Shown piece after piece: positions 5,641 through 21,706 of a stretch of DNA of 29,169 bases; position 1 is the stretch's first letter; the number at the start of each line of letters is the position of its first letter. Origin of the DNA: Candidatus Peregrinibacteria bacterium (GTDB taxonomy: Bacteria; Patescibacteriota; Gracilibacteria; UBA1369; UBA12463); the NCBI GenBank assembly GCA_016215735.1, contig JACRIA010000069.1, forward strand, positions 1-29,169. The letters are read 5' to 3'. A program made the position numbers and the translations under genes. Below the pieces are notes generated by a model. It made no database searches. It was not told the DNA's origin and was given only the letters and a program-made list of their open reading frames with translations.

Positions 5641-5701
5641 GGTGTTCGCCTGCGGCGATTTTTAATAGCGCCTGTGCCCGCCTCAGGCGGACGGCGTGTT
5701 A
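5641..5701. repeat. Bipartite hairpin element, family A, copy 1
   Basis: TCGCC-tgc-GGCGA, then an AT spacer, then GCGCC[tgt]GCCCGCC-tca-GGCGGAC-GGCGTGTTA; intergenic between nrdJ and the 851-aa gene. Confidence 0.85.
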
Positions 5702-5726
5702 GGACGCCCGTGGTGCTGTTGCGTTG

Positions 5727-8700
5727 CTATACAGTACACGCGGAGAATCCGCAATTCAAGCACAAGATACAGCCTTCGCCTTGACGTATTTCCGCAGAAC
5801 ATTCCGGGCATTTACATTCGCGCAACAATTGTGCTTTGCTCAGCGATCGATGCTGATGTGTTGTGAATTCTTCGGAAAAGGGGGAGCCCTCGCTTGCGAT
5901 CGGCGGAAGTATTATCTCTTCAATTTTGTTATTTTTTATCTTGGCCGTTCCTTTTTTCTGTTCCGGGATATCCGGCTGCGGAATTGTTTTTGATTTATTC
6001 ACTTTTCCGATATTAAGCACCTGCGATTCGCGGCTTTGGTCTCTGTAAATCGTGATTCCTTTGCAGTGCAGTTTATATGCGAGCCAATACGCTTGCTTGA
6101 TATCGTCGATCGACGCGGTTGACGGAAAATTTATTGTTTTTGATACAGAACTGTCAACATATTTTTGAAACGCGGCCTGCATTTTAACATGCCATTCAGG
6201 CAAGATATCCTGCGCGACGACAAAAACTTTTCTGATTTTTTCCGGAATCCATTTTATATTTTGTATTGATCCAATTTTCGCGATTTCAGCCATTAATTCA
6301 GGGGAATAAAGATTTTCTTTTTTCATTTCATCCTCAAAATATTTATTCGTGTAAACAAATTCAGTGCCGTCCATCACATTTTTGATATATGAGATTGCGA
6401 AGTTTGGTTCGAGTCCGCCAGAGGCTTCCGCGAGCATTCCAATCGTGCCGGTTGGAGCAATAGACGTGACGCATGCGTTTCTGATTTTAATGCCTTTTTT
6501 ATCGTATTCAGAGCCTTTCCATACTGGGAATACGCCGCGTACAGCCGCGAGTTTTATAGAATGTTTTATCGCGGCTTCATGAATGAATTTCATTGTTTTT
6601 TCGCCGAATTCAACTCCTTCATCTGAATTGTACGGAATATGCAATTGATAAAGAATATCCGCAAAACCCATTATGCCGAGGCCGATTTTGCGCGTTCTAT
6701 AGGTGTTTTCTTTAATTTGTTCAATTGGATAATGGTTTACGTCAATGACGTTATCCAAAAAATGTACGCATTTTTCCACAAGTTTATCGAGTTTTTCCCA
6801 ATCCAAATCCTTGCCGCTGCTTGCTACCACTTTATTAAGATTGATTGAGCCGAGATTACAGGATTCGTATGGAAGAAGCGGCTGTTCTCCACAATTATGG
6901 ACTACAAGTCCGTTTGCAATAAAACTGTGTGTGAGAGGTTCCGTAAGATCATATACAAGTTCTGTTCCAATGTGTTTTAGATTTTGAAATGTTGCGAAGA
7001 AATATTCTTTATACGGCTTTCTTTTCATGTTTTTTAGCGCAAGAGCAAGTTTTATTTTTTTGTTTGATTGAAGGAATCCGATTTCATTTTTGAATCTGGC
7101 AAGATTTTCTTTTGATATAACAAGTTCATGTTGCGCTTTTGTTCTGTAGAATTTGCTGCTGCCTTTGCCGTCTGGCAATTTTTTCCATCCTTCAAGTCTT
7201 CTGTTGCTGTATATTTTTGAAAATATGCCGAAATTCAAAAGCATTTGCTGAATTTTTTCCAAAACATCGAGGTTACTTTGTGCCAATCGTACGCTGAATC
7301 CTTTTTCTTTTGTGCCTGCGGTGTCGCTTCGCGACAGCTTATTTCTATAGACCTGTGTTCGCCTGCGGCGAACGGTCTGTTGAAAACTTCCGTCCGCAGA
7401 AAATAATCCCTGCAAAAATCCTTTCTGAAATGTTTCCGATGCAGTGAATATTTTTTCATCAATATCGTATTTACAAGGATTCAGTCCGTATGAATGCGCT
7501 AGTTCTCTCAAACGGCTTGAGCTGATTCGAACCTCATTCCTATTTGGGATTTTTACAATTCCTATTTTATTGTTTAACAATTCGGCTACCATTTTTTGAA
7601 ACATTGGCGCAAGACTGTATTTTTCCTCGCCAAAAAACGCTAATACTAATCTGGCTTTTTTGAATTCTTTGTTGTTCAGATATCCGTCTCCGACATACCA
7701 TCCAAGAATGCGGCCTGTTGCGAGATTTCCGTTTTTCCCGAACCCGCCTTTTCTATTTAATATATAAATTTTATCGTCTTGTTTTAGATCTTGCGCTTTA
7801 ATCCACCCATGTTTTGTCATTATTTTGTGATTCGCTGTGAGCTTTAAGCTGAATCCTTCTTTTGTTGTTAGCTTGTAGACGTCTTTTTCTCCAGTGATGA
7901 ATACTTTGCTGGCTTGAAGGCTGGATTTTTCGCTTATGCGCGAGTCAATGGTAAGCTTAATCGGGTTTTGTTTTAAAAATAATTCTTTTGCTGAAACCAG
8001 CCCTTTGTCCGTATAAATTAATGTATCGCCGGTTACGCATGGATTTGTGGCTTCTATATCCCCTAAATGCTTTACCGGACTTTTTCTATTTATTTCATCA
8101 ATAAAAATTAGACCCGGATCGCCGTTTTTCCACGCGTTCGCGAGAATGATATCAAAAACCATTTGACTGGGCAGTGTTTTTACGACTTTTTTATTGCGCG
8201 GATTCAAAAGCTCATATTCTTCATTTTTTTCAAGAGCTTCCATAAATCTGTCTGTTAATGCGACAGAAATATTAAAATTCGTGAGAGAATTCATGTCGGA
8301 TTTTGAATTGATGAAATCCAAAATATCCGGATGGTCAACGCGCAAAATTCCCATATTGGCTCCGCGCCGCTTGCCGCCTTGTTTGATAATTTCTGTCGCA
8401 GCGTCAAAAACTTTCATAAAACTCACTGGTCCGGAAGAAACGCCTGTTGTAGAGCGCACTACATCGTTTGACGGCCTTAATCTTGAAAAAGAAAAACCAG
8501 TTCCGCCGCCGCTTTTGTGGATAAGGGCGGCATGTTTCAGGCTTTCAAAAATTCCTTCCATTGAATCTTCAACTGGAAGAACAAAACATGCAGACAATTG
8601 TCCAAGTTGAGTTCCAGCATTCATAAGAGTGGGGGAATTCGGCATGAATTCCAGATTCGCGATCATATTGAAAAATTCTTCGCTTGTTTTTTCAACATTA

Positions 8701-9185
8701 GCGTTATAATTTTTGTCTGCCTGCGCGATTGCGTTCGCGATTCTATGCACCAAATCTTCAGGAGTTTCAATCAGATTTCCATTTTCATCTTTTAGCAAAT
8801 ATCTTTTTTCCAAAATCTTGAGCGCGTTGTTTGAAAAATTTAAATTCTTTTCAGCTTTGCCTTTACCAAGAATAAGTTCACGTTGAGCTCTTTCTTCGGC
8901 CCTTTTTTGTCTGTATAAAATGTACGCTTTTGCGGTTTTCGCGTGGCCTCCTTCAATCAATATTTTTTCAACAAGATCTTGAATCTGTTCAACAGTCGGA
9001 ATATCAGTTTCTTTTTTGAAAAAAACTTCTAGCACCGCAGTGATCTGGTTTGAAATTTGTTCTGCTTCTTTGCGATCTGTGCCACCAACAGCGGAAGCTG
9101 CTTTCCATATTGCTTCTGTAATTTTATTTTGATCAAAATCAACTATCCTTCCATCGCGTTTAACTATTTTTTTTATTGGAGACAT
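5727..9185 (-). CDS. nrdJ: Class II adenosylcobalamin-dependent ribonucleotide reductase with N-terminal ATP-cone, an intein and a C-terminal Zn-ribbon
   Basis: IVKRDGRIVDFD (ATP-cone), FMPNSPTLMNAG, QLSACFV, GGTGFSFS, NPC^CGEQPLLPYESCNLGSINL, IAPTGTI, VSKTINFP, KGITIYRD, CPEC...CLNCGFSAC. Confidence 0.96.
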   Translation of the reverse strand: MSPIKKIVKRDGRIVDFDQNKITEAIWKAASAVGGTDRKEAEQISNQITAVLEVFFKKETDIPTVEQIQDLVEKILIEGGHAKTAKAYILYRQKRAEERAQRELILGKGKAEKNLNFSNNALKILEKRYLLKDENGNLIETPEDLVHRIANAIAQADKNYNANVEKTSEEFFNMIANLEFMPNSPTLMNAGTQLGQLSACFVLPVEDSMEGIFESLKHAALIHKSGGGTGFSFSRLRPSNDVVRSTTGVSSGPVSFMKVFDAATEIIKQGGKRRGANMGILRVDHPDILDFINSKSDMNSLTNFNISVALTDRFMEALEKNEEYELLNPRNKKVVKTLPSQMVFDIILANAWKNGDPGLIFIDEINRKSPVKHLGDIEATNPCVTGDTLIYTDKGLVSAKELFLKQNPIKLTIDSRISEKSSLQASKVFITGEKDVYKLTTKEGFSLKLTANHKIMTKHGWIKAQDLKQDDKIYILNRKGGFGKNGNLATGRILGWYVGDGYLNNKEFKKARLVLAFFGEEKYSLAPMFQKMVAELLNNKIGIVKIPNRNEVRISSSRLRELAHSYGLNPCKYDIDEKIFTASETFQKGFLQGLFSADGSFQQTVRRRRTQVYRNKLSRSDTAGTKEKGFSVRLAQSNLDVLEKIQQMLLNFGIFSKIYSNRRLEGWKKLPDGKGSSKFYRTKAQHELVISKENLARFKNEIGFLQSNKKIKLALALKNMKRKPYKEYFFATFQNLKHIGTELVYDLTEPLTHSFIANGLVVHNCGEQPLLPYESCNLGSINLNKVVASSGKDLDWEKLDKLVEKCVHFLDNVIDVNHYPIEQIKENTYRTRKIGLGIMGFADILYQLHIPYNSDEGVEFGEKTMKFIHEAAIKHSIKLAAVRGVFPVWKGSEYDKKGIKIRNACVTSIAPTGTIGMLAEASGGLEPNFAISYIKNVMDGTEFVYTNKYFEDEMKKENLYSPELMAEIAKIGSIQNIKWIPEKIRKVFVVAQDILPEWHVKMQAAFQKYVDSSVSKTINFPSTASIDDIKQAYWLAYKLHCKGITIYRDQSRESQVLNIGKVNKSKTIPQPDIPEQKKGTAKIKNNKIEEIILPPIASEGSPFSEEFTTHQHRSLSKAQLLRECKCPECSAEIRQGEGCILCLNCGFSACTV
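6894..8039 (-). mobile_element. 382-aa intein with LAGLIDADG homing endonuclease, inserted just before the catalytic Cys of NrdJ (NP^CGEQ site)
   Basis: Starts CVTGDTLIYTDKG and ends FIANGLVVHN followed by C(+1). LAGLIDADG blocks ILGWYVGDG and FLQGLFSADG. Removing it restores EATNPCGEQPLL. Confidence 0.95.
7317..7379. repeat. Family A hairpin element, copy 2, inserted in frame in the intein endonuclease
   Basis: gtcgcttcgcgacagctt is identical to 11753-11770, followed by AGACC[tgt]GTTCGCC-tgc-GGCGAAC-GGTCT. Encodes about QTVRRRRTQVYRNKLSRSDTA. Exact boundaries are uncertain by a few nt. Confidence 0.85.
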
Positions 9186-9365
9186 GTGTTGGAGTTAAAT
9201 TTCTAATGTCTAATATATACTAATTTCTAATGCGGTTTGCGGCTGTGATGCACTAATTTCAAACACGGAAAGAACGGCCCAAGAAATTTATTTCTCCGAG
9301 CACTTCTAAATATATTCATATTTAGTTTTTGTTCAATAGATTTTTAGCAAAAACGCTTGCACCAA

Positions 9366-9413
9366 ATCATATATGTAGCGTCTTATACGATTGCGGCATA
9401 CTATATATTGTGG
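9366..9413. promoter_or_regulatory. Tandem putative NrdR boxes upstream of nrdJ
   Basis: atactatatattgtgg (9398-9413) matches the acaCwAtATaTwGtgt consensus. A weaker box atcatatatgtagcgt (9366-9381) lies 32 bp away, the spacing known for NrdR box pairs. Confidence 0.65.
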
Positions 9414-9465
9414 AAATGGCTTATTGCAGGGAGATAAGAGTTATTGTCCAAAAAGCCATGAAATT

Positions 9466-9975
9466 TCACATTTGTTTTAGCCTTTCAATGATGGCGGTTT
9501 TTACTGCGTTATCTACTGCGCCGGTTTTTCCTGATGTGTTTCCGAATTCAGATTCAGGTTCTTTTTCCAAAAGCTTTTCAATTTCTCGTGATTGTTCAAA
9601 CCCATCTTCTTTAGCAGGGTCTACATTTATTTCAGTTTCAGTATCCAAATCCATATATATTAAATCTGTTGTTCCAACGCGGCCGGCATTTATTTTCTTA
9701 TCTATTCCCAATTCCTGTTTTTCTTCTTCTGTTAATTTAATAACAAACCCTGCATCTCTGCCATCAGGCAATTTATAAAATTTATATTCCATATCCATGC
9801 AAGCAGTTGTTTTGTTGTTCAACCATACATTTACATATTGTTTGCCGGCTATTGCTACAGATTCCAATACTTCTTCTATTTCCAGGTCTGTTCAGGGAAT
9901 TTTATCTCCGACTTTAATAGACATTTCATTGATTTCTGTTTCATCAAAGGTAAAAGTTCCATCGTTGTTGTCCAT
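9466..9975 (-). pseudogene. Acidic hypothetical protein (169 codons) interrupted by one in-frame TGA at 9892-9894
   Basis: ATG at 9975 reads MDNNDGTFTFDETEINEMSIKVGDKIP*TDLEIEEVLESVAIAGKQ..., in frame with the listed 9466-9867 ORF. Confidence 0.65.
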
Positions 9976-10045
9976 GGTATATTTCGATTAATTAATAAAA
10001 GGATTTCATTTTTGCATAAATAAATTGTTGCGTCAATCCTTTGTA

Positions 10046-10513
10046 TTAACTGGCTTTTTTGAAATAATTTTCAATCGCGGATTTGAGGGCTTGGTCGCCT
10101 AAAACAGAACAGTGGATTTTTCTTTCTGGAAGACCGCCGAGACGTTTTAATATATCTTTTTGGCTTAATTTAAGCGCTTTATTAATTGGCATTCCGTTTT
10201 TTTCTGTGACCATTACAGATATTATTGAAGTTGATGCAATCGCGCTGGCGCAGCCGAAAGTCTGCCAGCCGCATTTTTTGATTCGTTTTGTTTTTGGATC
10301 AATGTAAATCCAAATTTTCATCATATCGCCGCACGCGGGACTGCCGACCATTCCTACGCCGTTATATTTGAAATTCGGCTTTCCGCCTAACACAAAATTT
10401 CTCGGATGAAAAAAATGGTCTTTAACTGTTTTTGAATAAAGCCATTTATCTCCGCGAGGAGAAATTATGTCAGGAGAGAATTTTTTGCACGAGAATTTTT
10501 GCGTGCGTTTCAT
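10046..10513 (-). CDS. iscU: IscU/NifU-N Fe-S cluster scaffold protein
   Basis: GSPACGDMMKIWI, TFGCASAIAS, RKIHCS (three conserved Cys); ATGA overlap with the iscS stop. Confidence 0.92.
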   Translation of the reverse strand: MKRTQKFSCKKFSPDIISPRGDKWLYSKTVKDHFFHPRNFVLGGKPNFKYNGVGMVGSPACGDMMKIWIYIDPKTKRIKKCGWQTFGCASAIASTSIISVMVTEKNGMPINKALKLSQKDILKRLGGLPERKIHCSVLGDQALKSAIENYFKKAS

Positions 10514-11721
10514 TGTTTGTATTTTAAGTTAACCGGCGAAATTGAACGCAGGTATTTTACTATTTTCGGAAGAGTTTCTAAAACATAATCAATTTCTTTT
10601 TTAGTCGTGTATTTGCTGAGCGTGAGCCGCAGACTGCCGTGGATTATTTCATGCGGAAGTCCGATCGCAGAAAGCACATGTGATGGTTCAAGATTTTTGG
10701 AGCTGCATGCGGATCCTGTGCCGCAGCAGATATTCATTTGGTCAAGATATAAAACAAGCGCTTCACCTTCGATATCGTATATTGAAATATGAACGTTGTT
10801 TGGGAGCCTTTGCGTTGGATGGCCGCTCCGAATTACTTTATCGATCCGTTTCATGATTCCATTTATCAATTTGTCGCGCAAATTACGAATTCGCGGCACA
10901 TCTGTTTTGATTGATTTTTGCGCTAGTTCAAGGGCTTTGCCGAATCCAACAATTGCCGCCACATTTTCAGTGCCTGGCCGCAAGCCGAATTCATGGTGGC
11001 CGCCGAAAATTATCGGTTCGATTTTTGTATTTTTTCTAATATAAAGGCTGCCGACTCCTTTTGGGCCGTGTATTTTTCCAGCGTTAAGCGTCATCAAATC
11101 AACACCCAATTTATCAACATTAAGAGTTAAACTGCCTGCTGCCTGACATGCGTCCGTATGAAGATAAGGGAGCCCGGCCGAATTTTTATACTTCTTGATT
11201 ATTTTGCTGATTTCTTCAATTGGCTCTATTGTTCCGATTTCATTGTTTGCATACATAATACTTACGAGAATCGTTTTTGGCGTGAGCGCTTTTTTTAATT
11301 CATCAAGCCGTACCACTCCGTATTTATCCACATTCAGACATGTGACGCTGAAGCCTTCTTTTTCAAGCGCCTCGCAAGTTTCAAGAATAGAAGGATGCTC
11401 TATTTTTGTTGTAATAATGTGATTCCCTTTTGATTTATTCAGCCGAGCTGCGCCGGCCAGCGCCAAGTTATTAGCTTCGGTACCGCTTCCAGTGAAAATA
11501 ATTTTGCCAGCATTGCAGCCAAGATAGTCGGCTGTAATTTTTCTTGCGTGATCGATTGCTTCGCGGCCTTCATAGCCAAGCGAATATAAGCCGCTTGGAT
11601 TACCGTATTTATCCGTCAGATATGGTTCCATCGCATGCAGCACAGTTCTATCGAGCTGTGTGGTTGCAGCGTTATCAAGATAAATCAATGTTTTACAAGG
11701 TTTTATATTGAGATTTTGCAT
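10510..11721 (-). CDS. iscS: PLP-dependent cysteine desulfurase (IscS/NifS group I)
   Basis: IYLDNAATT, FTGSGTEANN, HTDACQ, GKIHGPKG (PLP Lys), GSACSS (catalytic Cys). Confidence 0.96.
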   Translation of the reverse strand: MQNLNIKPCKTLIYLDNAATTQLDRTVLHAMEPYLTDKYGNPSGLYSLGYEGREAIDHARKITADYLGCNAGKIIFTGSGTEANNLALAGAARLNKSKGNHIITTKIEHPSILETCEALEKEGFSVTCLNVDKYGVVRLDELKKALTPKTILVSIMYANNEIGTIEPIEEISKIIKKYKNSAGLPYLHTDACQAAGSLTLNVDKLGVDLMTLNAGKIHGPKGVGSLYIRKNTKIEPIIFGGHHEFGLRPGTENVAAIVGFGKALELAQKSIKTDVPRIRNLRDKLINGIMKRIDKVIRSGHPTQRLPNNVHISIYDIEGEALVLYLDQMNICCGTGSACSSKNLEPSHVLSAIGLPHEIIHGSLRLTLSKYTTKKEIDYVLETLPKIVKYLRSISPVNLKYKQ

Positions 11722-11724
11722 AGT

Positions 11725-11827
11725 TTTATAGCGCCTGTGTCCGCCTGTTTGCGTCGCTTCGCGACAGCTTGTTTATAGCGCCTGTGTCCGCCTGAGGCGG
11801 ACGGCGTGTGCGGCGAACGGCGTGTTA
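11725..11827. repeat. Nested family A composite (copy 3 inserted in the loop of another copy)
   Basis: 23-bp direct repeat tttatagcgcctgtgtccgcctg at 11725-11747 and 11772-11794. Deleting 11748-11810 (63 nt) rejoins a complete hairpin. Confidence 0.85.
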
Positions 11828-11877
11828 TAGGGAGTGTTACGCGCTTTGATAGGCGAGCGTAAGTATTTTAGCATAAC

Positions 11878-11905
11878 TTGACTTAGGGTTATAACAAAGT
11901 ATAAT
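11878..11905 (+). promoter_or_regulatory. Sigma70-type promoter for the 11944 ORF
   Basis: TTGACT (11878-83), 16 bp, TATAAT (11900-05). Confidence 0.65.
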
Positions 11906-11943
11906 GGTTTTGCATAATAAATACTTAATTAAACCATAGAATT

Positions 11944-12384
11944 GTGTTAAATCAAGGGTTAGAGCAGACTAGTGGCGGGAATGGACAAAAAATAACAAAT
12001 CCCGAAGAATTTATTTGCGAGATAACCAAAGTTTGCGACAGCACAAGGGGAGCTGAAATACTTAAAAGCGATCTTAAACAGATTTGGGTTGCCGCATACT
12101 GTAATGGAAATGATGTAAGGGTGGCATTGAAGGAGGCTTTGGAAAGTGTTCTTGATGAAAAACGGCGGGAGAAAATCAAAGAAACATTGTCAAGCATCAT
12201 GGATCCCGAAACGGATGCGCTTTTGGGGTATTATTATATAAAAAATCCCGAAAAAACAGTTGATGACGTAGCGCAAAATTTTAGAGTTGCCGCGATGGCC
12301 GCGCTGGAGCTTTTGCCGCGCATCGAGCTCGCGGAAATCAACGTTGATGATTGTTCAGATTATTCCGGAGAAGTTCAAGGCTAA
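11944..12384 (+). CDS. Hypothetical helical protein
   Basis: 146-aa ORF with a GTG start behind a near-consensus promoter; no motif recognised. Confidence 0.6.
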   Translation: MLNQGLEQTSGGNGQKITNPEEFICEITKVCDSTRGAEILKSDLKQIWVAAYCNGNDVRVALKEALESVLDEKRREKIKETLSSIMDPETDALLGYYYIKNPEKTVDDVAQNFRVAAMAALELLPRIELAEINVDDCSDYSGEVQG

Positions 12385-12907
12385 GGCATGTTCCCATATC
12401 TTTTATTTTGCCTTTTTTCGCAAGCAGGCGAGCTTTAGCGAGCGTCAAGAGCTGCACCCGAATTTGTTCGTGCGGATCTAGTTTTTGTTTTGAAGTTTTG
12501 ATTGCGCCGCGTCCTATAAAAATATGAGCTTTGTTTGTTAGAACACCGGGCGATGCATAAAATTCGCCGAGCTTCTTGAGAGACACAGTTTTATAGCCGG
12601 TTTCTTCAAGAAGTTCGCGTGCCGCCGCCTGCGTCATTGTTTCATTTTTCCGCGCAAACCCAGCTGGAAACTCCAAATCTATCCGGCCAATCGGATGGCG
12701 ATACTGTTTAACCATTATTAATTTTCTGTCGGCGGTCCTGCCTCGCGGAGCGTGGGTGAAAGCCGCGATTATGCAGTAATCGGATTTTTCAATCACATAA
12801 TAATCTTTTGCGATGCGGCCATCTGTCATTTTATAGTCATCGCGCCTGACGCACAGAATGTTATTTTTCAAGACATATTTAGAGCGAATAATTTTCCAAT
12901 TTTTCAT
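12338..12907 (-). CDS. Nudix hydrolase, ADP-ribose pyrophosphatase-like
   Basis: VKQYRHP...EFPAGFARKNETMTQAAARELLEETGY Nudix box; FYASPG; DPHEQI. Confidence 0.92.
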   Translation of the reverse strand: MKNWKIIRSKYVLKNNILCVRRDDYKMTDGRIAKDYYVIEKSDYCIIAAFTHAPRGRTADRKLIMVKQYRHPIGRIDLEFPAGFARKNETMTQAAARELLEETGYKTVSLKKLGEFYASPGVLTNKAHIFIGRGAIKTSKQKLDPHEQIRVQLLTLAKARLLAKKGKIKDMGTCLSLELLRNNLNNHQR

Positions 12908-12914
12908 GATTTTA

Positions 12915-12923
12915 TGATATACT
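12915..12923 (+). promoter_or_regulatory. Extended -10 promoter (TGnTATACT) for the tRNA
   Basis: tgatatact at 12915-12923, 12 nt before the tRNA 5' end. Confidence 0.5.
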
Positions 12924-12935
12924 AATCGCTGTCAT

Positions 12936-13010
12936 GGCGCACTCGTCTAGTGGTTAGGACATCAGGTTTTCAACCTGAGAACTGGGGTCCGATTCCCCAT
13001 GGCGCTGCCA
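12936..13010 (+). tRNA. tRNA-Glu (anticodon TTC) with encoded CCA; atypical acceptor stem and T-loop
   Basis: D arm GTCT-AGTGGTT-AGGAC, anticodon arm TCAGG-ttTTCaa-CCTGA, T arm TGGGG-TCCGATT-CCCCA, 3' end TGGCGCT-G-CCA. Confidence 0.88.
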
Positions 13011-13072
13011 GAATTGAAGCATAGAATATAGAGGGCGGCTGTTTATGAGCTTGCCGCGGCAGACGAACTTTT

Positions 13073-13333
13073 TTATTTATACACATCGTGATCCCCGACA
13101 GCCAGGAGTATTGCTGTATTTTTTGATTCGTATTTAAAAACAATCCGATATTCATAATTCACAGAGAAGCTCCAAAAATCCTTCAATTTCCCCTTCAGTT
13201 TATGTGTTTTCAAAAAAGAATGATTTGGATCCTGACAAAAAAGGCCAATTTTCTCCTTTATTTCATCCTGCAGCGGTTTAGAATATTTTTTGTATTGGCG
13301 GACAAAAGTTGGTTTATACAAAATTTCGAGCAT
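13073..13333 (-). CDS. RelE/StbE (YafQ/YoeB-like) mRNA interferase toxin
   Basis: MLEILYKPTFVRQYKK...LKTHKLKGKLKDFWSFSVNYEYRIVF...VGDHDVY. Start 13333 lies just after the antitoxin stop. Confidence 0.9.
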   Translation of the reverse strand: MLEILYKPTFVRQYKKYSKPLQDEIKEKIGLFCQDPNHSFLKTHKLKGKLKDFWSFSVNYEYRIVFKYESKNTAILLAVGDHDVYK

Positions 13334-13337
13334 AGTC

Positions 13338-13544
13338 CTATAATTTTTTAGCAAGGGTGTCTAAATCGCCTTTCAAACTTGGCTCTTTTGAGGCTTCGAT
13401 GACAGTTTTTACAGCTTGATCTTCCAAGTACATGCGAAGCGCATGTCGGACAGCATCTGCCTTGTTTGCAGCAACACCCCGTTTAACAAGCATATTTAGG
13501 CTTCTCATCATATCTTCCGGCAGAGGGACGGATAGTGTACTCAT
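13338..13544 (-). CDS. Ribbon-helix-helix (CopG/MetJ-type) antitoxin
   Basis: MSTLSVPLPEDMMRSLNMLVKRGVAANKADAVRHALRMYL; immediately upstream of the toxin. Two TAATATTA palindromes upstream (13564-71, 13577-84) are candidate operators. Confidence 0.85.
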   Translation of the reverse strand: MSTLSVPLPEDMMRSLNMLVKRGVAANKADAVRHALRMYLEDQAVKTVIEASKEPSLKGDLDTLAKKL

Positions 13545-13701
13545 TTTAATTTTAATTATAATATAATATTACATTATAATATTAACATATCACATAAAAA
13601 TTTTCAAGAGATATTTAAATATCAAACATTTGCGGCTGTGCCGCTTCAAAGCTAAGCTTTTTACCTGCAAGTTAAATTCGTATAGCAGAAACAATTTCCT
13701 G

Positions 13702-14007
13702 CTATTTTACATAAACTTTGCTTGTCGGTTCCTGCATTTTTTTAATAAACGGATTTTTTTCAAGAGCAGGTGAGGACATCATTTCTGTTAGTTGTTCGTC
13801 GAGTTTTTCATTCTGCTGCTGCAAGTTTTCATGCTGGAGCTGGAGCTGTTTGAGCATGTAGCCCCTTTGTGTTGTATTGCCTGTTTGAAGCAGAAAATAA
13901 GCGCTAAGGCCGATTATAAGCGCTGTTAAGGTAATGAGCAGATATATTATTGTTTTTTTGATTTCAACAGAAAGGGGAGTGCGGGTTTGGATGATTTTGT
14001 GTTCCAT
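13702..14007 (-). CDS. FtsL-like bitopic cell division protein
   Basis: Short N-tail, single TM, then coiled coil GYMLKQLQLQHENLQQQNEKL; family by architecture only. Confidence 0.5.
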   Translation of the reverse strand: MEHKIIQTRTPLSVEIKKTIIYLLITLTALIIGLSAYFLLQTGNTTQRGYMLKQLQLQHENLQQQNEKLDEQLTEMMSSPALEKNPFIKKMQEPTSKVYVK

Positions 14008-14008
14008 T

Positions 14009-14071
14009 GTGGTGTCCGCCTTCGGCGGACGGCGTGGTGTCCCCCGCCATGGCGGGGCGGGCGGCGTGTTA
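14009..14071. repeat. Family A tandem variant filling the whole rlpA-ftsL-like intergenic gap
   Basis: GTCCGCC-ttc-GGCGGAC-GGCGT, then a second unit containing the CCCGCCATGGCGGG palindrome, ending GGCGTGTTA. Confidence 0.8.
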
Positions 14072-15043
14072 TTGAATGATTAAATATTCAATGGGTATTA
14101 TACCGTTAGAAAGGGGCGCGATAGAAGAAAACGCAGCCTGCGATAAATCAAGCGTGAAATTTTTAGCGTAGGGGCCGCGGTCGTTGATAACAACTTCAAC
14201 TGTTTTTGAATTGCGTAAATTTGTGACGCGCACTCGCGTGCCAAACGGAAGTTTCCTGTGCGCTGCTGTGAAATTTTTGTTTGAAAATGATTCTCCGGAA
14301 GATGTATGGCCGCCTTCAAGAGTTTTATGATAATAACTCGCGATTCCAAAATTTATTCCTTCGCGGGAACGAATTAATCTGTATAAAATTTCCATCAAAT
14401 AACCTTTTGTAACGATTTCACTTGGTTCCATTTCGTCAGATTTCCCAAATTTAATTATCCGTTTTTCTCTTGCCAGTTTCGCGTACGGCGCAAACCATAC
14501 GTTAGCTGGTACATCAGCAAAAATATTTTCAGCAGGCGCCGCAGTTGATATTTCCGGCGCCGCGGATTCTTCAGCCGGCGCGCTAAAAACTATTGAATTA
14601 TTTATTAATTTTTCTGTTTCAAGAACCATTTTGATGGCTTCTGCAAGCAAAATACGCTTATGCGGCAGAAACTTTTTGTTTTCATATCCGTTGATTATTT
14701 TTAATTCAACAGCTGTCTTTATATATGGCGCGAGAATACTTTCCGCAGGCACGTCCAAAAACGGTTTTAATGTTAATTTCATGTTTGATTCAGGCGCGTA
14801 GCCGAGAATTATTTTTAAAATATAATAAACAGCTTCGGCGCGGGACATTTCTTTTCCCGTATCAAACAAATCTCCATTTTTATCAAGCAAATCTGCTTTT
14901 TTTAAATATTGGATTGCTGTGAAATAATCGCTTCCTTTCGGCACGTCCTTAAAAAATTCTCCCTCTGCGTTTACCGCTGGCGCGAAAAAAATCTGGGACG
15001 CCAAAAATATGAACCCGATAAAAAAAGCTATTTTATGTTTCAT
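14069..15043 (-). CDS. rlpA: SLH-domain protein fused to an RlpA-like (DPBB) lytic transglycosylase domain
   Basis: Signal peptide; SLH motifs FKDVPKGSDY, FLDVP...IINGY, FADVPANVWFAPY; C-terminal GIASYY...TAAHRKLPFGTRVRVTN...INDRGPY...LDLSQAAF. Confidence 0.9.
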   Translation of the reverse strand: MKHKIAFFIGFIFLASQIFFAPAVNAEGEFFKDVPKGSDYFTAIQYLKKADLLDKNGDLFDTGKEMSRAEAVYYILKIILGYAPESNMKLTLKPFLDVPAESILAPYIKTAVELKIINGYENKKFLPHKRILLAEAIKMVLETEKLINNSIVFSAPAEESAAPEISTAAPAENIFADVPANVWFAPYAKLAREKRIIKFGKSDEMEPSEIVTKGYLMEILYRLIRSREGINFGIASYYHKTLEGGHTSSGESFSNKNFTAAHRKLPFGTRVRVTNLRNSKTVEVVINDRGPYAKNFTLDLSQAAFSSIAPLSNGIIPIEYLIIQ

Positions 15044-15516
15044 GCTTTTTCTTCGCTTTTTAGCTTGAGCGTGACTTGTCTATGGTCGTTTTCGCCGACG
15101 CTTTCGGTTTGAATATCTTGAAATTTTTCCTGCACAAAATGCATGTGCACAATTCTGCGCAGATAAGCCGGCATTGGCGGAAGAATCTGGATTTTCTTTG
15201 TTTTCCGCAGAAGTTCAACTTTTCGCTCTGCGAGATTGAGAATATTGTCCTCGTGCTCTTTTTTGTAATTGTCCACATCGAGCACGATATTTATTCCCAT
15301 TTCACCGAGACGTTTGAATGCCAGTGCTTTAAAAATATGCTGGAGACTGTGTAAAGTTTCGCCATGATATCCGATAAGCATGGCTGCGTTCTTTAGCCCA
15401 GCGATGTTCGCTTTGTACGTTGTGTTGTCGGATGTGATCTCGATTTTGACTGACGGCTCCGTAAAATATTTGATCAGTTCCTCGAGGATTTCCTGAAGCA
15501 ATTTTTCTGTTTCCAT
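15040..15516 (-). CDS. jag: Jag/KhpB (EloR)-type KH plus R3H RNA-binding protein
   Basis: LIGYHGETLHSLQ (KH), LDVDNYK, LPPMPAYLRRIVH...TESVGENDHRQV (R3H); canonical position after yidC. Confidence 0.92.
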   Translation of the reverse strand: METEKLLQEILEELIKYFTEPSVKIEITSDNTTYKANIAGLKNAAMLIGYHGETLHSLQHIFKALAFKRLGEMGINIVLDVDNYKKEHEDNILNLAERKVELLRKTKKIQILPPMPAYLRRIVHMHFVQEKFQDIQTESVGENDHRQVTLKLKSEEKA

Positions 15517-15559
15517 ATTTTTTTGGCGTAGATCTGCGGAACGACGTGATCCGCGCCTG

Positions 15560-16852
15560 TTAATGAGTAATGACTTTTACAGTTGGTTCACTTTTCCCTT
15601 TTCCGCCGCGATTAACAAGATATTGCTGGCCGACGCTGAATAACGTAGAAGCGCCCCAATAGATGCCAACACCTGCCGGCACCGAAGCAGTGAATATAGC
15701 AATCATTACAGGCATAAAATAAAGCATCATTTTGTTTACACTTTTAGATTCTGTTTTATTCTGTTCACCCGGGGTTTTTGTAGCTGCGCCTCCTGTGCTG
15801 AATGACAATTTCATCTGCAGAAATTGAAGTCCGCCGATAATAACCGGCAGAACGTAGCTGTTTTGTTTAGTGAGATCAAGAATCCCCAGAAAATTCACAT
15901 TTATATTATCCAGCGTAAAGCCCTTAAGAAAGCCATAAATCATATACGCGTTATCAGCGTTTAATCCGTTTCGTACAACATAAAAAATCGCGATCAAGAA
16001 CGGAAACTGAATCAAAATCGGCAGACAGCTTCCAAACGGATTTACTTTATTTTCCTTGAAAATTCTTAAAGTTTCCTGGCCGATCATTTGCTGATTTCCT
16101 TTGTATTTTTCTTTGAGCCTGTCGATTTCCGGCTGGACTTCCTGCATTCTTTTTTGCGACTGCATTGAGCGGTGCGACGGCCAGAAAAGTATCATTCGTA
16201 CGATTATCGTAAGAATAATAATCGCGAAGCCGAAATCGCGAAAAGGCAGAATATTTGTGAAGAAAATCAGCGTGTTATAAATCGGGAAATAAAAGAAATT
16301 GTTCCAGAGCTTGCGCCAAAAGCTTTGTTCTACAACTTGAAATTCATTTGATTCAAAAGTTTTATCCGCGGCTTTTTTTTCAACGACTTTTTTCCCTTTA
16401 GCAGTTGGACTTGGTTCGTCGCTAGTTGCGCTGGCGGTTTTTATTGTGAGGCTGATTTTGTATTTTCCAAGTTCGCCGAATAAAGCGTGATTCCATTTAT
16501 CATACGCGATTTGATAGTCTTTGCCCGTAGGAAGTACAAAATCTTTTGCTTCAGTACAATCTGTTTTTGGGTTTGATTCTATTTTTTGCCACGCGTTATC
16601 AGCATATTTAAAAACATCGAGCGGATTATGCGGACATGCGTTTTTAATTGTGATATCTGCCTGCGTGTTATTTTTGAGTTCGACGATTACGGTTTTATCG
16701 AGGCCGAATTCGCTGTCAGTCTGCATCCCAATTTCGTTTTTATCGAGCAGGCCGGGTTCGCTGCTTTTTCCTTTAAAAGCGCCCAAAATCAAATTCAGCG
16801 CAAGAAAAATTGCCACAAAAATAACTACATTTCTCAGGATGTTTTTACCCAT
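15560..16852 (-). CDS. yidC: YidC/Oxa1 membrane protein insertase
   Basis: FGFAIIILTIIVRMILFWP, SQKRMQEVQPEI, NPFGSCLPILIQFP, GVGIYW. Confidence 0.96.
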   Translation of the reverse strand: MGKNILRNVVIFVAIFLALNLILGAFKGKSSEPGLLDKNEIGMQTDSEFGLDKTVIVELKNNTQADITIKNACPHNPLDVFKYADNAWQKIESNPKTDCTEAKDFVLPTGKDYQIAYDKWNHALFGELGKYKISLTIKTASATSDEPSPTAKGKKVVEKKAADKTFESNEFQVVEQSFWRKLWNNFFYFPIYNTLIFFTNILPFRDFGFAIIILTIIVRMILFWPSHRSMQSQKRMQEVQPEIDRLKEKYKGNQQMIGQETLRIFKENKVNPFGSCLPILIQFPFLIAIFYVVRNGLNADNAYMIYGFLKGFTLDNINVNFLGILDLTKQNSYVLPVIIGGLQFLQMKLSFSTGGAATKTPGEQNKTESKSVNKMMLYFMPVMIAIFTASVPAGVGIYWGASTLFSVGQQYLVNRGGKGKSEPTVKVITH

Positions 16853-17214
16853 TTGAATATATTTTTGAAGATATAAATTATTTCGTTTTCCATTTCAGCA
16901 AAGCCTTTTTCGAGAATTTTGCTGTTTGGTCCGAGCGCTATGTCATATGTTGCGCCGGGTCTTGCCGCGTTTGCTATGGCCGCGCCTTGCCCTGCGCCGA
17001 GATTTTTCCTTATTGCTTCGTAGATTTGTCTTCGGATCCGCGTTCTTTTGATTGGCGTGAGTTTGAGCTTCTTACTTATTATAATACAGAAACGATTGAT
17101 ACCTGCTTTATTCGCCTTAGAAATCACCAAAAAATTGCTGGACTTATGCCGAATGCCTTTACGCAGCAGAAATTCAACCTGGCCTTTACTGAGCCTGTTT
17201 TTTTTAGCCAGCAT
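16834..17214 (-). CDS. rnpA: Ribonuclease P protein component
   Basis: MLAKKNRLSK...RFCIIISKK...KRTRIRRQIYEAIR (RNR-like motif); located between rpmH and yidC. Confidence 0.88.
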   Translation of the reverse strand: MLAKKNRLSKGQVEFLLRKGIRHKSSNFLVISKANKAGINRFCIIISKKLKLTPIKRTRIRRQIYEAIRKNLGAGQGAAIANAARPGATYDIALGPNSKILEKGFAEMENEIIYIFKNIFKWVKTS

Positions 17215-17215
17215 A

Positions 17216-17347
17216 TCAAACAGGAGTTAGTTTTTTCCTGCCCTTCTCTCTTCTGCGGGATAAAACTTTCCGACCGCCTTTTGTTTTCATTCTTTTTAGA
17301 AAACCGTGGGTGCGGGCTCTTTTCCGCTTCTTTGATTTCGAAAGCAT
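17216..17347 (-). CDS. rpmH: 50S ribosomal protein L34 (43 aa; absent from the ORF track)
   Basis: Manual translation [43 protein letters not shown], with the HGFxxRM signature. Confidence 0.96.
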
Positions 17348-17370
17348 ATATTAATTAGTTATTATTTGAC

Positions 17371-17435
17371 GTGGTTTCCGCCTGCGGCGGATTTATTTTA
17401 TAACGCCTGTGTCCGCCTGAGGCGGACGGCGTGGT
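17371..17435. repeat. Family A bipartite hairpin element upstream of rpmH
   Basis: TCCGCC-tgc-GGCGGA, AT spacer, ACGCC[tgt]GTCCGCC-tga-GGCGGAC-GGCGT. Confidence 0.85.
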
Positions 17436-17453
17436 CGGGAAAAGCTTATCGTA

Positions 17454-17494
17454 TAAATAAAAAGTTTGCAAATGTATATATATTATATTATACT
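17454..17494 (+). promoter_or_regulatory. Sigma70-type promoter, copy 1 of a duplicated promoter
   Basis: A-tract UP-like sequence, TTGCAA (17466-71), 17 bp, TATACT (17489-94). Confidence 0.65.
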
Positions 17495-17561
17495 CAAACT
17501 CGGCTTTTTTGTTATTAAAAACCATGTTATTCTAAGTATGCTTTATATAACCTAATAAAAT

Positions 17562-18578
17562 ATGAAAAAAATAATTTTGGCAGTTTTACTATTTTTCTTG
17601 TCAATCCAGCCTGTTTTCGCGGATCTTACTATACCGACAACCACTAAAGTATATTTTGAAAAGGACGGGAAACAATACAATAAAAAAATCGAATATACCG
17701 TAAAATGTTATGGCTTCAGTTTCGTACCATGGAAGGAGGAATTTTTTCAGCCCGGAGAATATACGCCAACAAAGATTTATTCTTATTCAGCTACATGTCC
17801 GAATTACGGTTGTGAAATCAACGAAAACTATTATTTAAATTACGTCAAAATCGATTACTGCGATTTGGAAGGAAAAAGCGATGATGGCGCTTTTAAAATA
17901 AAAAACTTTGCTTCCGAGCCTATCACGGATTGTTCTAAAAATGACGAAGAAAGATCTTGCCAGATACGCTTTGATATTCCAACTGATAAAACCAGCCTTA
18001 TTTTTCTCGATATGCATCCGAATCACGAAAATTACGATGCTGTAGAATATGTAAAATCTAAAAAAATTATCTCCGGATACCCGGACAATACATTCAGGCC
18101 CTATTTAGGCGTAAACAGAGCGGAATTTACAAAAATGCTTGTTGAATCGGTATTTGACAAGAATGTTATAGATAATTGCATACAACAAAACGTTCAATCT
18201 GACTGGGGATATGCTTATTTTAAGGACGTAGACCGCAATGCTTGGTATGCTAAATACGTTTGCGTAGCGAAAAATAAAAATATTATTAGCGGATATCCTG
18301 ACGGGACATTTAAACCAGAAAAGCCGATAAATCTAGCCGAGGCGTCAAAAATTTTAGTTGGCGCTTTCGGCTATCCTTATGATTCTTCCCATCAATACGA
18401 CTTGTGGTATTCGCCTTTTATAGGAGTTTTGTCAGATAAAAAGGCAGTTCCAGAGAGCGTTGAAACCGAAAGCCAAAATCTTAGGAGAGGAGAATTTGCA
18501 GAAATTATATATAGATTAAAAGAAAATATTACGAACAAACCGCATTATAATTGTTGTCCGACCGGAATATTAGAATAG
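17562..18578 (+). CDS. Secreted SLH-domain protein with a Cys-rich N-terminal domain
   Basis: Signal peptide ending VFA; SLH motifs IISGYPDNTFRP...NRAEF, FKDVDRNAWY, ISGYPDGTFKPE...AEA. Confidence 0.88.
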   Translation: MKKIILAVLLFFLSIQPVFADLTIPTTTKVYFEKDGKQYNKKIEYTVKCYGFSFVPWKEEFFQPGEYTPTKIYSYSATCPNYGCEINENYYLNYVKIDYCDLEGKSDDGAFKIKNFASEPITDCSKNDEERSCQIRFDIPTDKTSLIFLDMHPNHENYDAVEYVKSKKIISGYPDNTFRPYLGVNRAEFTKMLVESVFDKNVIDNCIQQNVQSDWGYAYFKDVDRNAWYAKYVCVAKNKNIISGYPDGTFKPEKPINLAEASKILVGAFGYPYDSSHQYDLWYSPFIGVLSDKKAVPESVETESQNLRRGEFAEIIYRLKENITNKPHYNCCPTGILE

Positions 18579-18587
18579 AGGTATTTT

Positions 18588-18944
18588 ATGGTTTATCAAA
18601 CACGATTTTTAATTTCTTTATTGATTACTTTATTGCTTGAGGTGCCGATTGTTTTTATTTTTGTTAAATATATTTTCCGAGAAAAAATAAGAACAAAAAA
18701 TATTCTTTTAACCGGATTTTTGGCTTCTATTTTGACCTTGCCGTATGTATGGTTTGTTATATCGCCGTATGTAGATGCGAGATATTATATTATTTACAGT
18801 GAGATTTTTGCGATTATTACAGAAGCTTTGTTATATAATCAATTTATAAATATCAAATTTCATAAATCAATCGCTATTTCTATTATTGCTAATGCGGCGT
18901 CTTATTTTGCGGGAGCATACCTAGTTAAATTTGCTTTTTCATAG
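18588..18944 (+). CDS. Small polytopic membrane protein (about 4 TM)
   Basis: Hydrophobic 118-aa ORF 9 nt after the SLH gene. Confidence 0.8.
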   Translation: MVYQTRFLISLLITLLLEVPIVFIFVKYIFREKIRTKNILLTGFLASILTLPYVWFVISPYVDARYYIIYSEIFAIITEALLYNQFINIKFHKSIAISIIANAASYFAGAYLVKFAFS

Positions 18945-18952
18945 ATTATCCT

Positions 18953-18993
18953 TAAATAAAAAGTTTGCAAACGTATCGCATATATTGTATATT
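18953..18993 (+). promoter_or_regulatory. Sigma70-type promoter, copy 2 of the duplicated promoter
   Basis: taaataaaaagtttgcaaa is identical to 17454-17472. TTGCAA (18965-70), 17 bp, TATATT (18988-93). Confidence 0.6.
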
Positions 18994-19020
18994 ATGCGCG
19001 AATTATCTGACCTTTTTATT

Positions 19021-20961
19021 ATGGCAATAAATGTAAACTATGAATTTTTGTTTGTTGGAAGGGACGAAAACAGTTTCCTGGAAAATTATGTGTATGACGC
19101 GACAGACGATTACGGCGATAAGGGAGGCAAACTTTGGGTAACGCTTGAAATTCAAAACAATCCTGCTGAAGCAGAAACAATCGCGGAGACTGTTTTTGAA
19201 ACAATGCGCAGGCATTTTTTCGCTGACATGAATGCTGATCCGTATGCGAGATTCGAAAACAGCCTTAAAGAAGCGAATAAGAAACTTGAGGCGTTTAAAG
19301 CTGAAAAGTCATCCCATTATATTGGCAATTTGAGCATTCTTGCGGCTGCTGTTGTTGGAACGAATCTGCTTTTGTCGCAATGCGGCGAAGCAGAGGCTTA
19401 TTTAATCAGAAAAAGATATGTGAGCGTAATTACAGAAGGTTTGAGCGATGATAATTATGAATTTTTCACAAATATAGCGACCGGAGTGCTTGAGCTTAAT
19501 GATTTTGTTGTTTTGTCTTCGAGCAGGCTGCTCCGATATATTTCAAAAACAGAACTTGCGAAATGTATTACGCAAGGCAATGTTGTTAAATCTCTTGAAG
19601 AATTAAATTCAATGGTTGCTTCGGAAATTCTGGGAAAGATAGCGATTACCGGAATCAATGCGGCTGAACAGGAAGAAATTATGGAGGAAGAAGTTGTGCG
19701 GCCGTCGTTTATCGCGAGCAAACTTGGATTTCTAAAAAAGGTTCCTTATATTGATAAATTGCCGCTGGATAAGCTTAAAAATATAGATTGGGAGAAATTT
19801 CGGTCAGGCGCGAAAAATGTTATTGAAAAAGCTAGTACTTTGCAGGAGAAATTTATGAAGCCGGAATCTTTGAAAGACAAAGTTTTAATCGGGTTTATCG
19901 CTGTCGCTGTTATTTTACTTTTGTTTGTCGGCGTTACGAAATACCGCCAGAGCAGAAATGAAGAATTAACAGCGCTTGATACAAAATTGAATCAGGCGCG
20001 CGATGAATTAAGCGAAGCTCTAACAAAAGGCGAGTACGATAAAACCGCAGCAGGCAAAATTTTGGCGCACGCGGAACAGACTGCGAAAGAAGTTCTTAAT
20101 ACAACTATGCGTGCGAAAGCGACCGAAGTTCTCACGAGGATTCAGGAAGTGCGCGACACCCTTGATAATACAAAAAGAGTAACGCCGGAAGTTTATCTTG
20201 ATCTGACCAAAACAAAATCAGAAGTAAACGCGCTTGGCATTTTGCATTTAAAAGATAGATCTTATGTGTTTGATAATAATTCGCTTTTTGAATTAATTTT
20301 GAATAATGTCGGCGAGCCAATGGCTATAGCTGACAACGAAACCGTTATTGCAGGCGCTGTTTTTGATGAACGCGAAAGCCTTGTTTTCCTAACCAAATCA
20401 GGCAAAGTGGTTGAGTTTAAAGACGGGAATTTCCGCTACATGTCAACGACTGACGGTGTGTTTCACAAAGGCATTTCAATCAAAACATGGAGCAATAAAA
20501 TTTATATTTTGAATCCAGAAGAAGATCAGATATGGAAATATGCGTACATGAATACAAAAGACATGTTCTCGAACGCGGAAGCGTACAGACAGGACGGTTC
20601 CATGAAAAATACTGTTGATTTCAGCCTTGATGGGAATATTTACACAGCGAACAGCGACGGCAGTCTTGTGCGGTATTACGCTGGCAGGATTCAGGAAACA
20701 CCGATGCTGAAGGCGGCATTTAGGCCTTTAAATTCAGCTTCGAAAGTTTACACTGACGCTGACATGATGCAGGTTTTTGTTTTAGATGGAACTGAAAATA
20801 GATTATATCTTTATCAGAAAGAGCAAAAAGGCGCGGCTTTAAGTTACGGCAGGCAATATCAGTTTGACGGCGTCGGTGAAGTGCGCAGTTTGTATTTTGA
20901 TAAAACAGCGAATCAAATTTATATAGTTGATTCAGAAAAGATATATAAAGTTACGCTTTAG
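19021..20961 (+). CDS. Membrane-anchored protein: degenerate PP2C-like N-domain, TM helix, coiled coil, C-terminal beta-propeller
   Basis: LSILAAAVVGTNLLLSQCGEAEAYLIR and GVLELNDFVVLSSSRL follow PP2C strand patterns without the DG motifs. TM VLIGFIAVAVILLLFVGV. Repeated IY(I/V)L/D blades. Start 19021 is preferred because 18931 overlaps the upstream gene and promoter. Confidence 0.7.
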   Translation: MAINVNYEFLFVGRDENSFLENYVYDATDDYGDKGGKLWVTLEIQNNPAEAETIAETVFETMRRHFFADMNADPYARFENSLKEANKKLEAFKAEKSSHYIGNLSILAAAVVGTNLLLSQCGEAEAYLIRKRYVSVITEGLSDDNYEFFTNIATGVLELNDFVVLSSSRLLRYISKTELAKCITQGNVVKSLEELNSMVASEILGKIAITGINAAEQEEIMEEEVVRPSFIASKLGFLKKVPYIDKLPLDKLKNIDWEKFRSGAKNVIEKASTLQEKFMKPESLKDKVLIGFIAVAVILLLFVGVTKYRQSRNEELTALDTKLNQARDELSEALTKGEYDKTAAGKILAHAEQTAKEVLNTTMRAKATEVLTRIQEVRDTLDNTKRVTPEVYLDLTKTKSEVNALGILHLKDRSYVFDNNSLFELILNNVGEPMAIADNETVIAGAVFDERESLVFLTKSGKVVEFKDGNFRYMSTTDGVFHKGISIKTWSNKIYILNPEEDQIWKYAYMNTKDMFSNAEAYRQDGSMKNTVDFSLDGNIYTANSDGSLVRYYAGRIQETPMLKAAFRPLNSASKVYTDADMMQVFVLDGTENRLYLYQKEQKGAALSYGRQYQFDGVGEVRSLYFDKTANQIYIVDSEKIYKVTL

Positions 20962-21194
20962 AGGGGACGGTTCTCTATTTACAGATCGAAAATTTTATTT
21001 CTGGATAAGATTTAAGGCAAAGGCACCGGATATACAAAATATTGATTTTGTGTTGAAACTACTGATTTTTATTAAAATTTCTTAACAAAAAATTAAAAAT
21101 CTCGGGGACGGTTCTCGGGTTTTTGGCATAAAAAAGCCAAAGTGCCTTAGAGAACCGTCCCGCTTTTAAGCTCGACAGGAGAGAACCGTCCCCT
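20962..21194. repeat. 233-bp inverted-repeat element (family C, GGGGACGGTTCTC) between convergent genes
   Basis: Perfect 15-bp IR aggggacggttctct (20962-76) / agagaaccgtcccct (21180-94); inner pair at 21104-16 / 21150-61. Confidence 0.85.
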
Positions 21195-21678
21195 AAATAG
21201 TGTGGCTTTTCGCGATTTTTTTGCTTTTGAATGTTGTTTGCGGGCCGCGCTCGACTTTGACGTTCGAGTCGCGCAATATATCAAAATGAGGTAGAACTTC
21301 AGGGTAACCTTCTTGATAAACAACGCGGGCGATTCCTGATTCCGCGATCAAACTTGAGCAAATTCTGCAAGGGTGTTTTGTGCAGTAGAGAGTCGCGTTT
21401 TTGAGCGAAACTCCTTTTTTGACAGCTTGCGCGATAATCCATTGTTCTGCGCACATTCCATAGCAGATTTCACGTTTTTCGCCTGATTTGATGTGTCTTC
21501 GGTTTCTGATGCAGCCGATTTTATTGCAGGGATATTGGCAATGCCAGTCGTTTGTATGTTTGAAAAGTACGCGGTTGTTTTTTACAACAACAGCCGCGAT
21601 GTTCGCGCGCAGACAAAGAGCGCCAGGCTCCATTTTATCAATCAGTTCCAAAAATTTTATGTCTTTTTTTGTGATCAT
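21193..21678 (-). CDS. dCMP-deaminase/ComEB-like zinc deaminase with a CAE motif instead of HAE
   Basis: CLRANIAAVVVKNN, GCIR...SGEKREICYGMCAEQWII, ATLYCTKHPCRICSSLIAESGIARVVY. Confidence 0.85.
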   Translation of the reverse strand: MITKKDIKFLELIDKMEPGALCLRANIAAVVVKNNRVLFKHTNDWHCQYPCNKIGCIRNRRHIKSGEKREICYGMCAEQWIIAQAVKKGVSLKNATLYCTKHPCRICSSLIAESGIARVVYQEGYPEVLPHFDILRDSNVKVERGPQTTFKSKKIAKSHTI

Positions 21679-21706
21679 TTTTTATGGGGCGGCTTGAGCG
21701 CATTTA

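Follow-up and report, generated by a model that had tools for sequence, protein, structure and literature searches.

The vitamin B12-dependent ribonucleotide reductase (RNR) NrdJ of a Candidatus Peregrinibacteria bacterium carries an intein, and the LAGLIDADG endonuclease domain of this intein carries, in frame, one unit of a multi-copy repeat that we call family A. The insertion is 63 nt long and occupies positions 7317-7379 of a 29,169-nt contig (JACRIA010000069.1, assembly GCA_016215735.1; hereafter the window), which appears to come from a groundwater metagenome. In its own orientation the unit lies on the plus strand, antisense to the gene. The evidence for its nature comprises (i) complete identity with a second copy in the same genome; (ii) a match to the family A profile; (iii) a gap at this position in homologous inteins; (iv) empty sites in relatives; (v) its fold. 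The insertion is thereby confirmed, and with it a genuine and recent instance of one selfish element lodged in another.

The insertion and its empty sites

The 63 nt amount to 21 codons, residues 603-623 of the protein and 221-241 of the intein. Read on the minus strand, the peptide runs from ...FLQGLFSADGSFQ through the 21 residues encoded by the insert, QTVRRRRTQVYRNKLSRSDTA, to GTKEKGFSVRLAQ... on the far side. The initial annotation had described an in-frame insert right after the second LAGLIDADG motif, and the peptide reads exactly as it stated. The inserted residues are rich in Arg because the GC-rich stems of the repeat are read as codons (CGC CGC AGG CGA), and the resulting loop has a net charge of about +6.

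Elsewhere in the same genome (contigs are denoted by C and a number) the unit has an identical copy at C3:5961-6023 (63/63, E 9e-31) and further close copies at C1:799-858 (98%) and C7:1930-1987 (95%). The kinship first proposed, with a module at 11748-11810 of the window, holds as well; the two share an exact 18-nt run (7323-7340 and 11753-11770), and over 66 aligned columns they agree in 51. With a profile made from 13 family A copies, the best nhmmer match is the copy at 7317-7379. Folding prediction gives the insert two hairpins (-17.3 kcal/mol, z = -4.8), a stability that 0/200 shuffled sequences reach.

Searching 5.8 billion proteins with the intein region gave thousands of NrdJ inteins, the best 120 of which were aligned with MAFFT. 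The 21 insert columns are filled only in the window protein. They are empty in 119/119 nearest homologues, a gap of exactly 21 residues at the position where the initial annotation had led one to expect it, and none of these proteins has an equally long segment there. The insert-free homologues come from several phyla and are 44% to 76% identical; the nearest two (76% and 73%) are both 1129 amino acids long. No other protein among the 5.8 billion sequences was found to contain the insert, and the allele that carries it forms one protein cluster with one member.

The breadth of this alignment bears on the direction of the event. In formal terms the segment could be ancestral to this lineage of inteins and have been lost by deletion from the relatives, or the genomic repeats could derive from the intein. 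We consider this vanishingly improbable: the segment would have to be missing from 119/119 homologues across several phyla, and family A has more than 100 copies in the genome and is also present in same-genus genomes whose NrdJ lacks the intein or whose intein lacks the insert.

A gain of the unit in this genome is also what the DNA of the relatives indicates. Three loci (L001, L003 and L017, one of them from the same genus) have the uninterrupted site CAA-GGC, where the window has CAA, the 63 nt and GGC. Comparison of the filled site with the three empty ones reveals no target-site duplication, and the junction can slide by one A only. Close relatives share a gene order of NrdJ, a gene of about 850 codons and a competence gene. 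At the syntenic loci (L001-L004) of the two closest intein-bearing relatives the family A profile has no match.

The host intein

The host gene is the 1152-residue open reading frame (ORF) on the minus strand at 5727-9185. It is identified as adenosylcobalamin-dependent NrdJ by NCBIfam model TIGR02504 (725 bits; cut-off 400) and has Pfam matches to ATP-cone, RNR N, RNR barrel, Intein_splicing and LAGLIDADG_3 (the last at 7e-21); the translation ends in a Cys-rich C-terminal tail. The intein (6894-8039, minus strand) comprises 382 residues, 383-764 of the precursor, with boundaries placed by alignment with 70 homologues, all of which show the pattern C...HN-CGEQ. Its first residue is Cys and its last two are His-Asn; immediately after it comes the extein Cys of the NPCGE motif, the catalytic, thiyl-radical cysteine of RNRs. 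An intein directly before this Cys is also found in thousands of NrdJ proteins in the databases; inteins at this RNR site are common and already known.

In an alignment of 40 sequences the splicing residues are intact and invariant or nearly so (C1, T68 and H71 of block B, H381-N382 and the +1 Cys), and both catalytic Asp residues (D118 and D216) are kept, as are all other invariant columns. The N-terminal Cys, block B TxxH, His-Asn and +1 Cys are those of class 1 by sequence. The first LAGLIDADG helix spans intein residues 106-118 (7686-7724, minus strand) and ends in Asp118-Gly119, the second spans residues 202-216 (7392-7436, minus strand) and ends in Asp216-Gly217; both were assigned from the secondary structure of an AlphaFold2 model together with invariant columns (D118 and G119; A215, D216 and G217). 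Foldseek comparison of the model with the Protein Data Bank (PDB) gives PI-PfuI as the best match (1.7e-18), then the TliVMA intein (3.8e-18), and also the Pho VMA intein and PI-SceI, while I-DmoI matches the endonuclease part. Sequence and model together predict a class 1 intein with a Hint splicing domain and a two-motif LAGLIDADG endonuclease fold.

Within the genus the intein is polymorphic: G004 has it without the insert, and in G001 and G002 NrdJ is without the intein. Potential homing targets therefore exist. The intein-less genes match the extein part only (G001, C7:100428-100544; G002, C47:4799-4915) and lie in ORFs of 783 and 773 residues.

Structure of the insert region

The AlphaFold2 model of the intein, based on 40 homologues, has a mean predicted local distance difference test score (pLDDT) of 92.5 and a predicted template modelling score (pTM) of 0.91. 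A strand leads out of the second LAGLIDADG helix (intein residues 217-223, 7371-7391) and a second strand returns (residues 246-254, FSVRLAQ..., 7278-7304, minus strand; DSSP on the model), and the insert, residues 221-241, makes the turn between the two. Residues 229-244 are the only long stretch of low confidence in the intein, with pLDDT below 50; the remainder of the endonuclease domain is above 90. The model indicates that the insert lengthens the tip of the β-hairpin and breaks no secondary-structure element, and that its 21 residues are probably a disordered surface extension. The location foreseen in the initial annotation, the strand-loop region of the DNA-binding sheet after the second LAGLIDADG helix, is the one that the model returns.

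In LAGLIDADG enzymes the hairpin that follows the helix belongs to a sheet lying in the DNA major groove. A loop of 21 residues and a charge of about +6 could, on this model, change the DNA contacts of the endonuclease, and since it would sit on the DNA-binding sheet, changed or reduced homing cleavage is plausible. A stronger form of the same idea holds that the insert has disabled the endonuclease, so that the intein can no longer move and has reached the decaying stage of the homing cycle, with the repeat as its first visible lesion. The insert begins only 5 residues after the catalytic Asp216, places 21 disordered and positively charged residues on a hairpin that is generally held to lie in the major groove, and is known from a single cluster with a single member. 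It sits, however, at the hairpin turn, outside the strands and the active site, in a domain otherwise modelled with high confidence, and neither catalytic Asp nor any other invariant column has been altered; moreover, LAGLIDADG enzymes differ in the length of this hairpin loop. Loss of the endonuclease is for these reasons a possibility to be taken seriously, but one towards which we do not lean.

The basic character of the loop and its place on the DNA-facing sheet could also be read as a sign that the insert has been co-opted, with the Arg-rich loop adding or altering DNA contacts or making splicing conditional, and is kept by selection. Complete identity to another genomic copy leaves no time for such selection. 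The Arg codons are simply what the GC-rich stems encode, the peptide module NKLSRSDTA of the insert is found in UvrA and IspDF too, and neither the protein search nor the same-genus genomes yielded a second genome with the insert allele. We regard co-option as distinctly improbable. We likewise hold it to be unlikely that the loop retargets the homing endonuclease, or that the repeat rides intein homing into the intein-less NrdJ alleles of the genus; if true, it would let a non-autonomous repeat spread horizontally by way of intein homing.

Family A in the genome and the genus

At E<0.01 the family A profile has 114 matches in the genome of about 950 kb (nhmmer). The family is present in 5/5 genomes of the genus and in 0/36 other relatives searched. 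The copies on C3, C1 and C7 each lie in a hairpin loop that belongs to an older family A copy, in agreement with an earlier claim that these repeats nest in themselves. An Rfam scan of the whole window matched the repeat to no curated RNA family. Taken together, the sequence comparisons describe family A as a genus-specific, non-autonomous two-hairpin repeat.

Three further places in the window, all intergenic and on the plus strand, were assigned to the family by repeat comparison. One copy (5641-5703) lies just downstream of the NrdJ stop codon, a cluster at 11725-11827 includes the module at 11748-11810, and a copy at 17371-17438, also matched by the profile, consists of a small triloop hairpin, an AT spacer and a large hairpin. 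All family A copies of the window that fall in direct-repeat families (5641-21768) have one orientation. Relative to the dominant coding strand of each contig, 49/63 copies genome-wide are antisense and 14 are sense. This coding-strand bias (49 vs 14) is clear, whereas the bias with GC skew as a proxy for the replication strand (39 vs 27) is weak.

Family A in housekeeping genes

All family A matches were scanned for long read-through ORFs, and ten such ORFs were checked against Pfam. About 13 coding loci in the genome have a family A read-through, almost all with the copy antisense to the host gene. UvrA (C67:1634-1693) has 20 extra residues (60 nt) that are without counterpart in the alignment with eight relatives, three of them from the same genus; the empty site, ATC-AAT, is clean in the three same-genus genomes, and the 60-nt insert shares its last nine bases with the intein copy. 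MnmA (C41:14495-14580) has about 27 extra residues by alignment. In Mfd (C61:2370-2480) and IspDF (C61:20735-20855) a genome-specific segment at the repeat splits the matches in relatives; GuaA (C44:9040-9110) likewise has such a segment, where the match splits only in two sister-genus relatives. Each of these five housekeeping genes gains about 20-55 residues relative to its orthologues. The module NKLSRSDTA is common to the intein, UvrA and IspDF copies. An ORF with HhH-GPD and LigD_N domains, a MurA-like ORF and a sigma-70 factor are candidate in-frame hosts only.

The coding copies outside the intein lie between Pfam domain matches or at their edges, and these domain positions suggest that the repeat-bearing sites are loops or inter-domain linkers. 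In the HhH-GPD/LigD_N ORF (C49:1342-2427, 362 residues) the linker between the HhH-GPD glycosylase domain (38-173) and the LigD_N 3'-phosphoesterase domain (246-348) holds a family A copy (residues ~205-225), and the ORF may be two genes fused by the repeat. That several conserved but unrelated ORFs carry in-frame copies which their orthologues lack sustains the analogy with Rickettsia palindromic elements (RPEs) that had been drawn at the outset.

These genes also bear on the proposal, made in the initial annotation, that the intein is a safe harbour from which the insert is spliced out of an essential enzyme. Part of it stands. The splicing motifs are all kept and the peptide should leave with the intein; however, UvrA, MnmA, Mfd, GuaA and IspDF are not spliced and tolerate the repeat too, so that splicing-out is not needed for tolerance. 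The chance that one of about 13 coding loci in about 0.85 Mb of coding DNA would hit the 1.1-kb intein is ~0.02, which is suggestive but post hoc and drawn from one event. With its 100% identity to another copy, the intein copy is also the youngest, and it may therefore be transient and not yet purged.

Model for the insertion and points that weigh against it

We propose, as highly probable, that a family A unit was recently copied into the endonuclease part of the NrdJ intein, is translated there as a loop, is spliced out, and has survived by passing a filter of tolerance. The 63-nt unit sits between a Gln and a Gly codon, at the hairpin turn after the second LAGLIDADG helix. The gene stays open because the length of the unit is a multiple of three and the antisense frame in use contains no stop codon, and the insert would be translated as part of the intein, giving an Arg-rich surface extension of 21 residues. 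Since the splicing residues of the intein are intact, the loop would be expected to leave with the intein and the reductase to be unchanged. Survival would depend on a length divisible by three, the absence of a stop codon and a tolerant surface position, and no special property of the intein would be needed. The consequence for the cell is probably small, with the reductase most likely unaffected.

Several points weigh against this proposal or parts of it. The first concerns the assembly, which was checked on independently built Logan contigs. One contig of 1670 nt covers 6900-7342 and another of 1001 nt covers 7346-7800, both with 0 differences, so that each junction of the insert is crossed separately, with 26 nt of the repeat included in the first contig and 34 nt in the second. 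No single Logan contig spans the whole repeat; both end within it, as would be expected of a de Bruijn graph at a repeat with an identical copy elsewhere. For the internal length of the insert the evidence is the original assembly, together with the exact 3n fit to the homologues. A repeat-induced misjoin or a collapsed graph path might then have put the repeat into the intein, all the more as family A is abundant, an identical 63-nt copy exists on another contig, and the k-mer depth in the flanks is only about 6-8x with no record spanning the insert. A misjoin, though, would not re-enter the same gene at the next nucleotide, and here the flanks abut exactly at CAA-GGC with the frame kept; the two independent contigs each carry one junction with 0 mismatches, and an empty-site joint was seen in none of the Logan contigs. 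Misassembly is very unlikely.

The remaining points concern the way in which family A moves. The genome encodes two Y1/HUH proteins, a REP-associated tyrosine transposase (RAYT; C21:502-1155) and an IS200 transposase (C68). The RAYT scores 80 bits on NF047646, exactly the cut-off, and has a second, partial copy on C34 (C34:2-322). Its homologues occur in 3/4 other genomes of the genus and in 0/11 genomes of two sister genera, a distribution that roughly mirrors that of family A. The RAYT genes, however, have inverted copies of another repeat on either side, GGTGTCGGTTCTC in this genome (C21:380-1155) and GGGGACGG-type in relatives, and the family A profile finds no match, even at E<=10, at the RAYT flanks of G000 (the source genome), G001, G002 and G004. 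Direct pairing of the RAYT with family A as its mobiliser is rejected on the ground of these flanks. The same-genus homologues have GGGGACGGAGGT or GGGGACGGTGGT arms, so that from species to species the RAYT and the repeat beside it seem to change together. The arms are similar to the GGGACGGTTCTC element, another hairpin family, at 20962-21194 of the window.

The IS200-type transposase (152 residues, C68:1-1200) has CCACGGCTTTAGCCGTGG hairpins on both sides, and the adjoining sequence contains a tRNA-like T-arm. In a set of 16 genomes of the bacterial family the transposase was found only in the source genome, and not in the four other same-genus carriers of family A. With hairpins that differ from those of family A (CCACGGCTTTAGCCGTGG) and this distribution, IS200 TnpA is rejected as the mobiliser.

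Our best guess, held with moderate confidence, is a single-strand, hairpin-guided copying of the HUH/Y1 type, because there is no target duplication, the ends are hairpins, copies nest in hairpin loops and the insertions are strand-polar. These features are all indirect, and selection against stop codons, or against terminator-like hairpins in the sense orientation, could explain the orientation bias equally well.

The only Rfam match in the window is a tRNA at 12936-13007.

Comparison with known systems

The build of the intein is shared with PI-PfuI (1dq3), TliVMA (7qsu/7qss) and PI-SceI (1vde), which have the same Hint domain and two-motif LAGLIDADG endonuclease (E 1e-18 to 1e-12). In contrast to LAGLIDADG inteins of the PI-PfuI type, the NrdJ intein described here is alone in having a 21-residue, repeat-derived hairpin extension after the second LAGLIDADG helix.

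As for the repeat, a classical miniature inverted-repeat transposable element (MITE) is ruled out: the filled and empty pairs at the intein and UvrA show an ambiguity of at most 1 nt and no duplication, and the ends of the unit are not inverted repeats of each other. Family A has more in common with repetitive extragenic palindromic sequences (REPs) and bacterial interspersed mosaic elements (BIMEs), with their RAYTs, and with elements derived from IS200/IS605. Like these it consists of short, GC-rich, imperfect palindromes that are clustered, strand-polar and without target duplication, and a RAYT gene is present. It differs from REP/BIME systems in that the RAYT is flanked by another family and in that family A enters coding sequence, unusual for REPs, which are "extragenic"; it differs from the palindrome-associated elements derived from IS200/IS605 in that the resident IS200 has unrelated hairpins and occurs in the source genome only. 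We found no description in the literature of a REP- or MITE-like repeat inside an intein.

The closest parallel is that with RPEs, palindromic repeats of about 150 nt that lie in frame in ORFs of Rickettsia (PMC10969869). RPEs and other in-frame, MITE-like repeats (PMC10969869; the QMITEs of Coxiella, PMC5896051) are likewise multi-copy, hairpin-forming and non-autonomous and occur in unrelated housekeeping ORFs of a small genome, and family A resembles RPEs in adding a repeat-derived peptide at sites that look structurally tolerant. Unlike RPEs, family A units are 60-63 nt long, have a modular build of two hairpins and nest in their own loops; the two clean family A sites show no target duplication, the host is a groundwater bacterium of about 1 Mb, and one copy is inside an intein. 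The likeness is one of pattern, and relatedness in sequence between family A and RPEs is not expected.

In-frame palindromic repeats are already known, and the NrdJ case is a recent, testable example of the RPE type, not a new principle. Its value lies in being a clean, datable natural experiment: there is an identical copy that resembles a donor, the empty sites are exact, the intein is intact, and sister genomes offer NrdJ alleles without the intein as targets. From it one could learn how cleavage and splicing respond when the DNA-binding hairpin of a LAGLIDADG enzyme is extended at its tip by 21 residues. It also extends a phenomenon of the Rickettsia type to a very different streamlined lineage, with a genome of about 1 Mb, and to a much shorter, duplication-free element.

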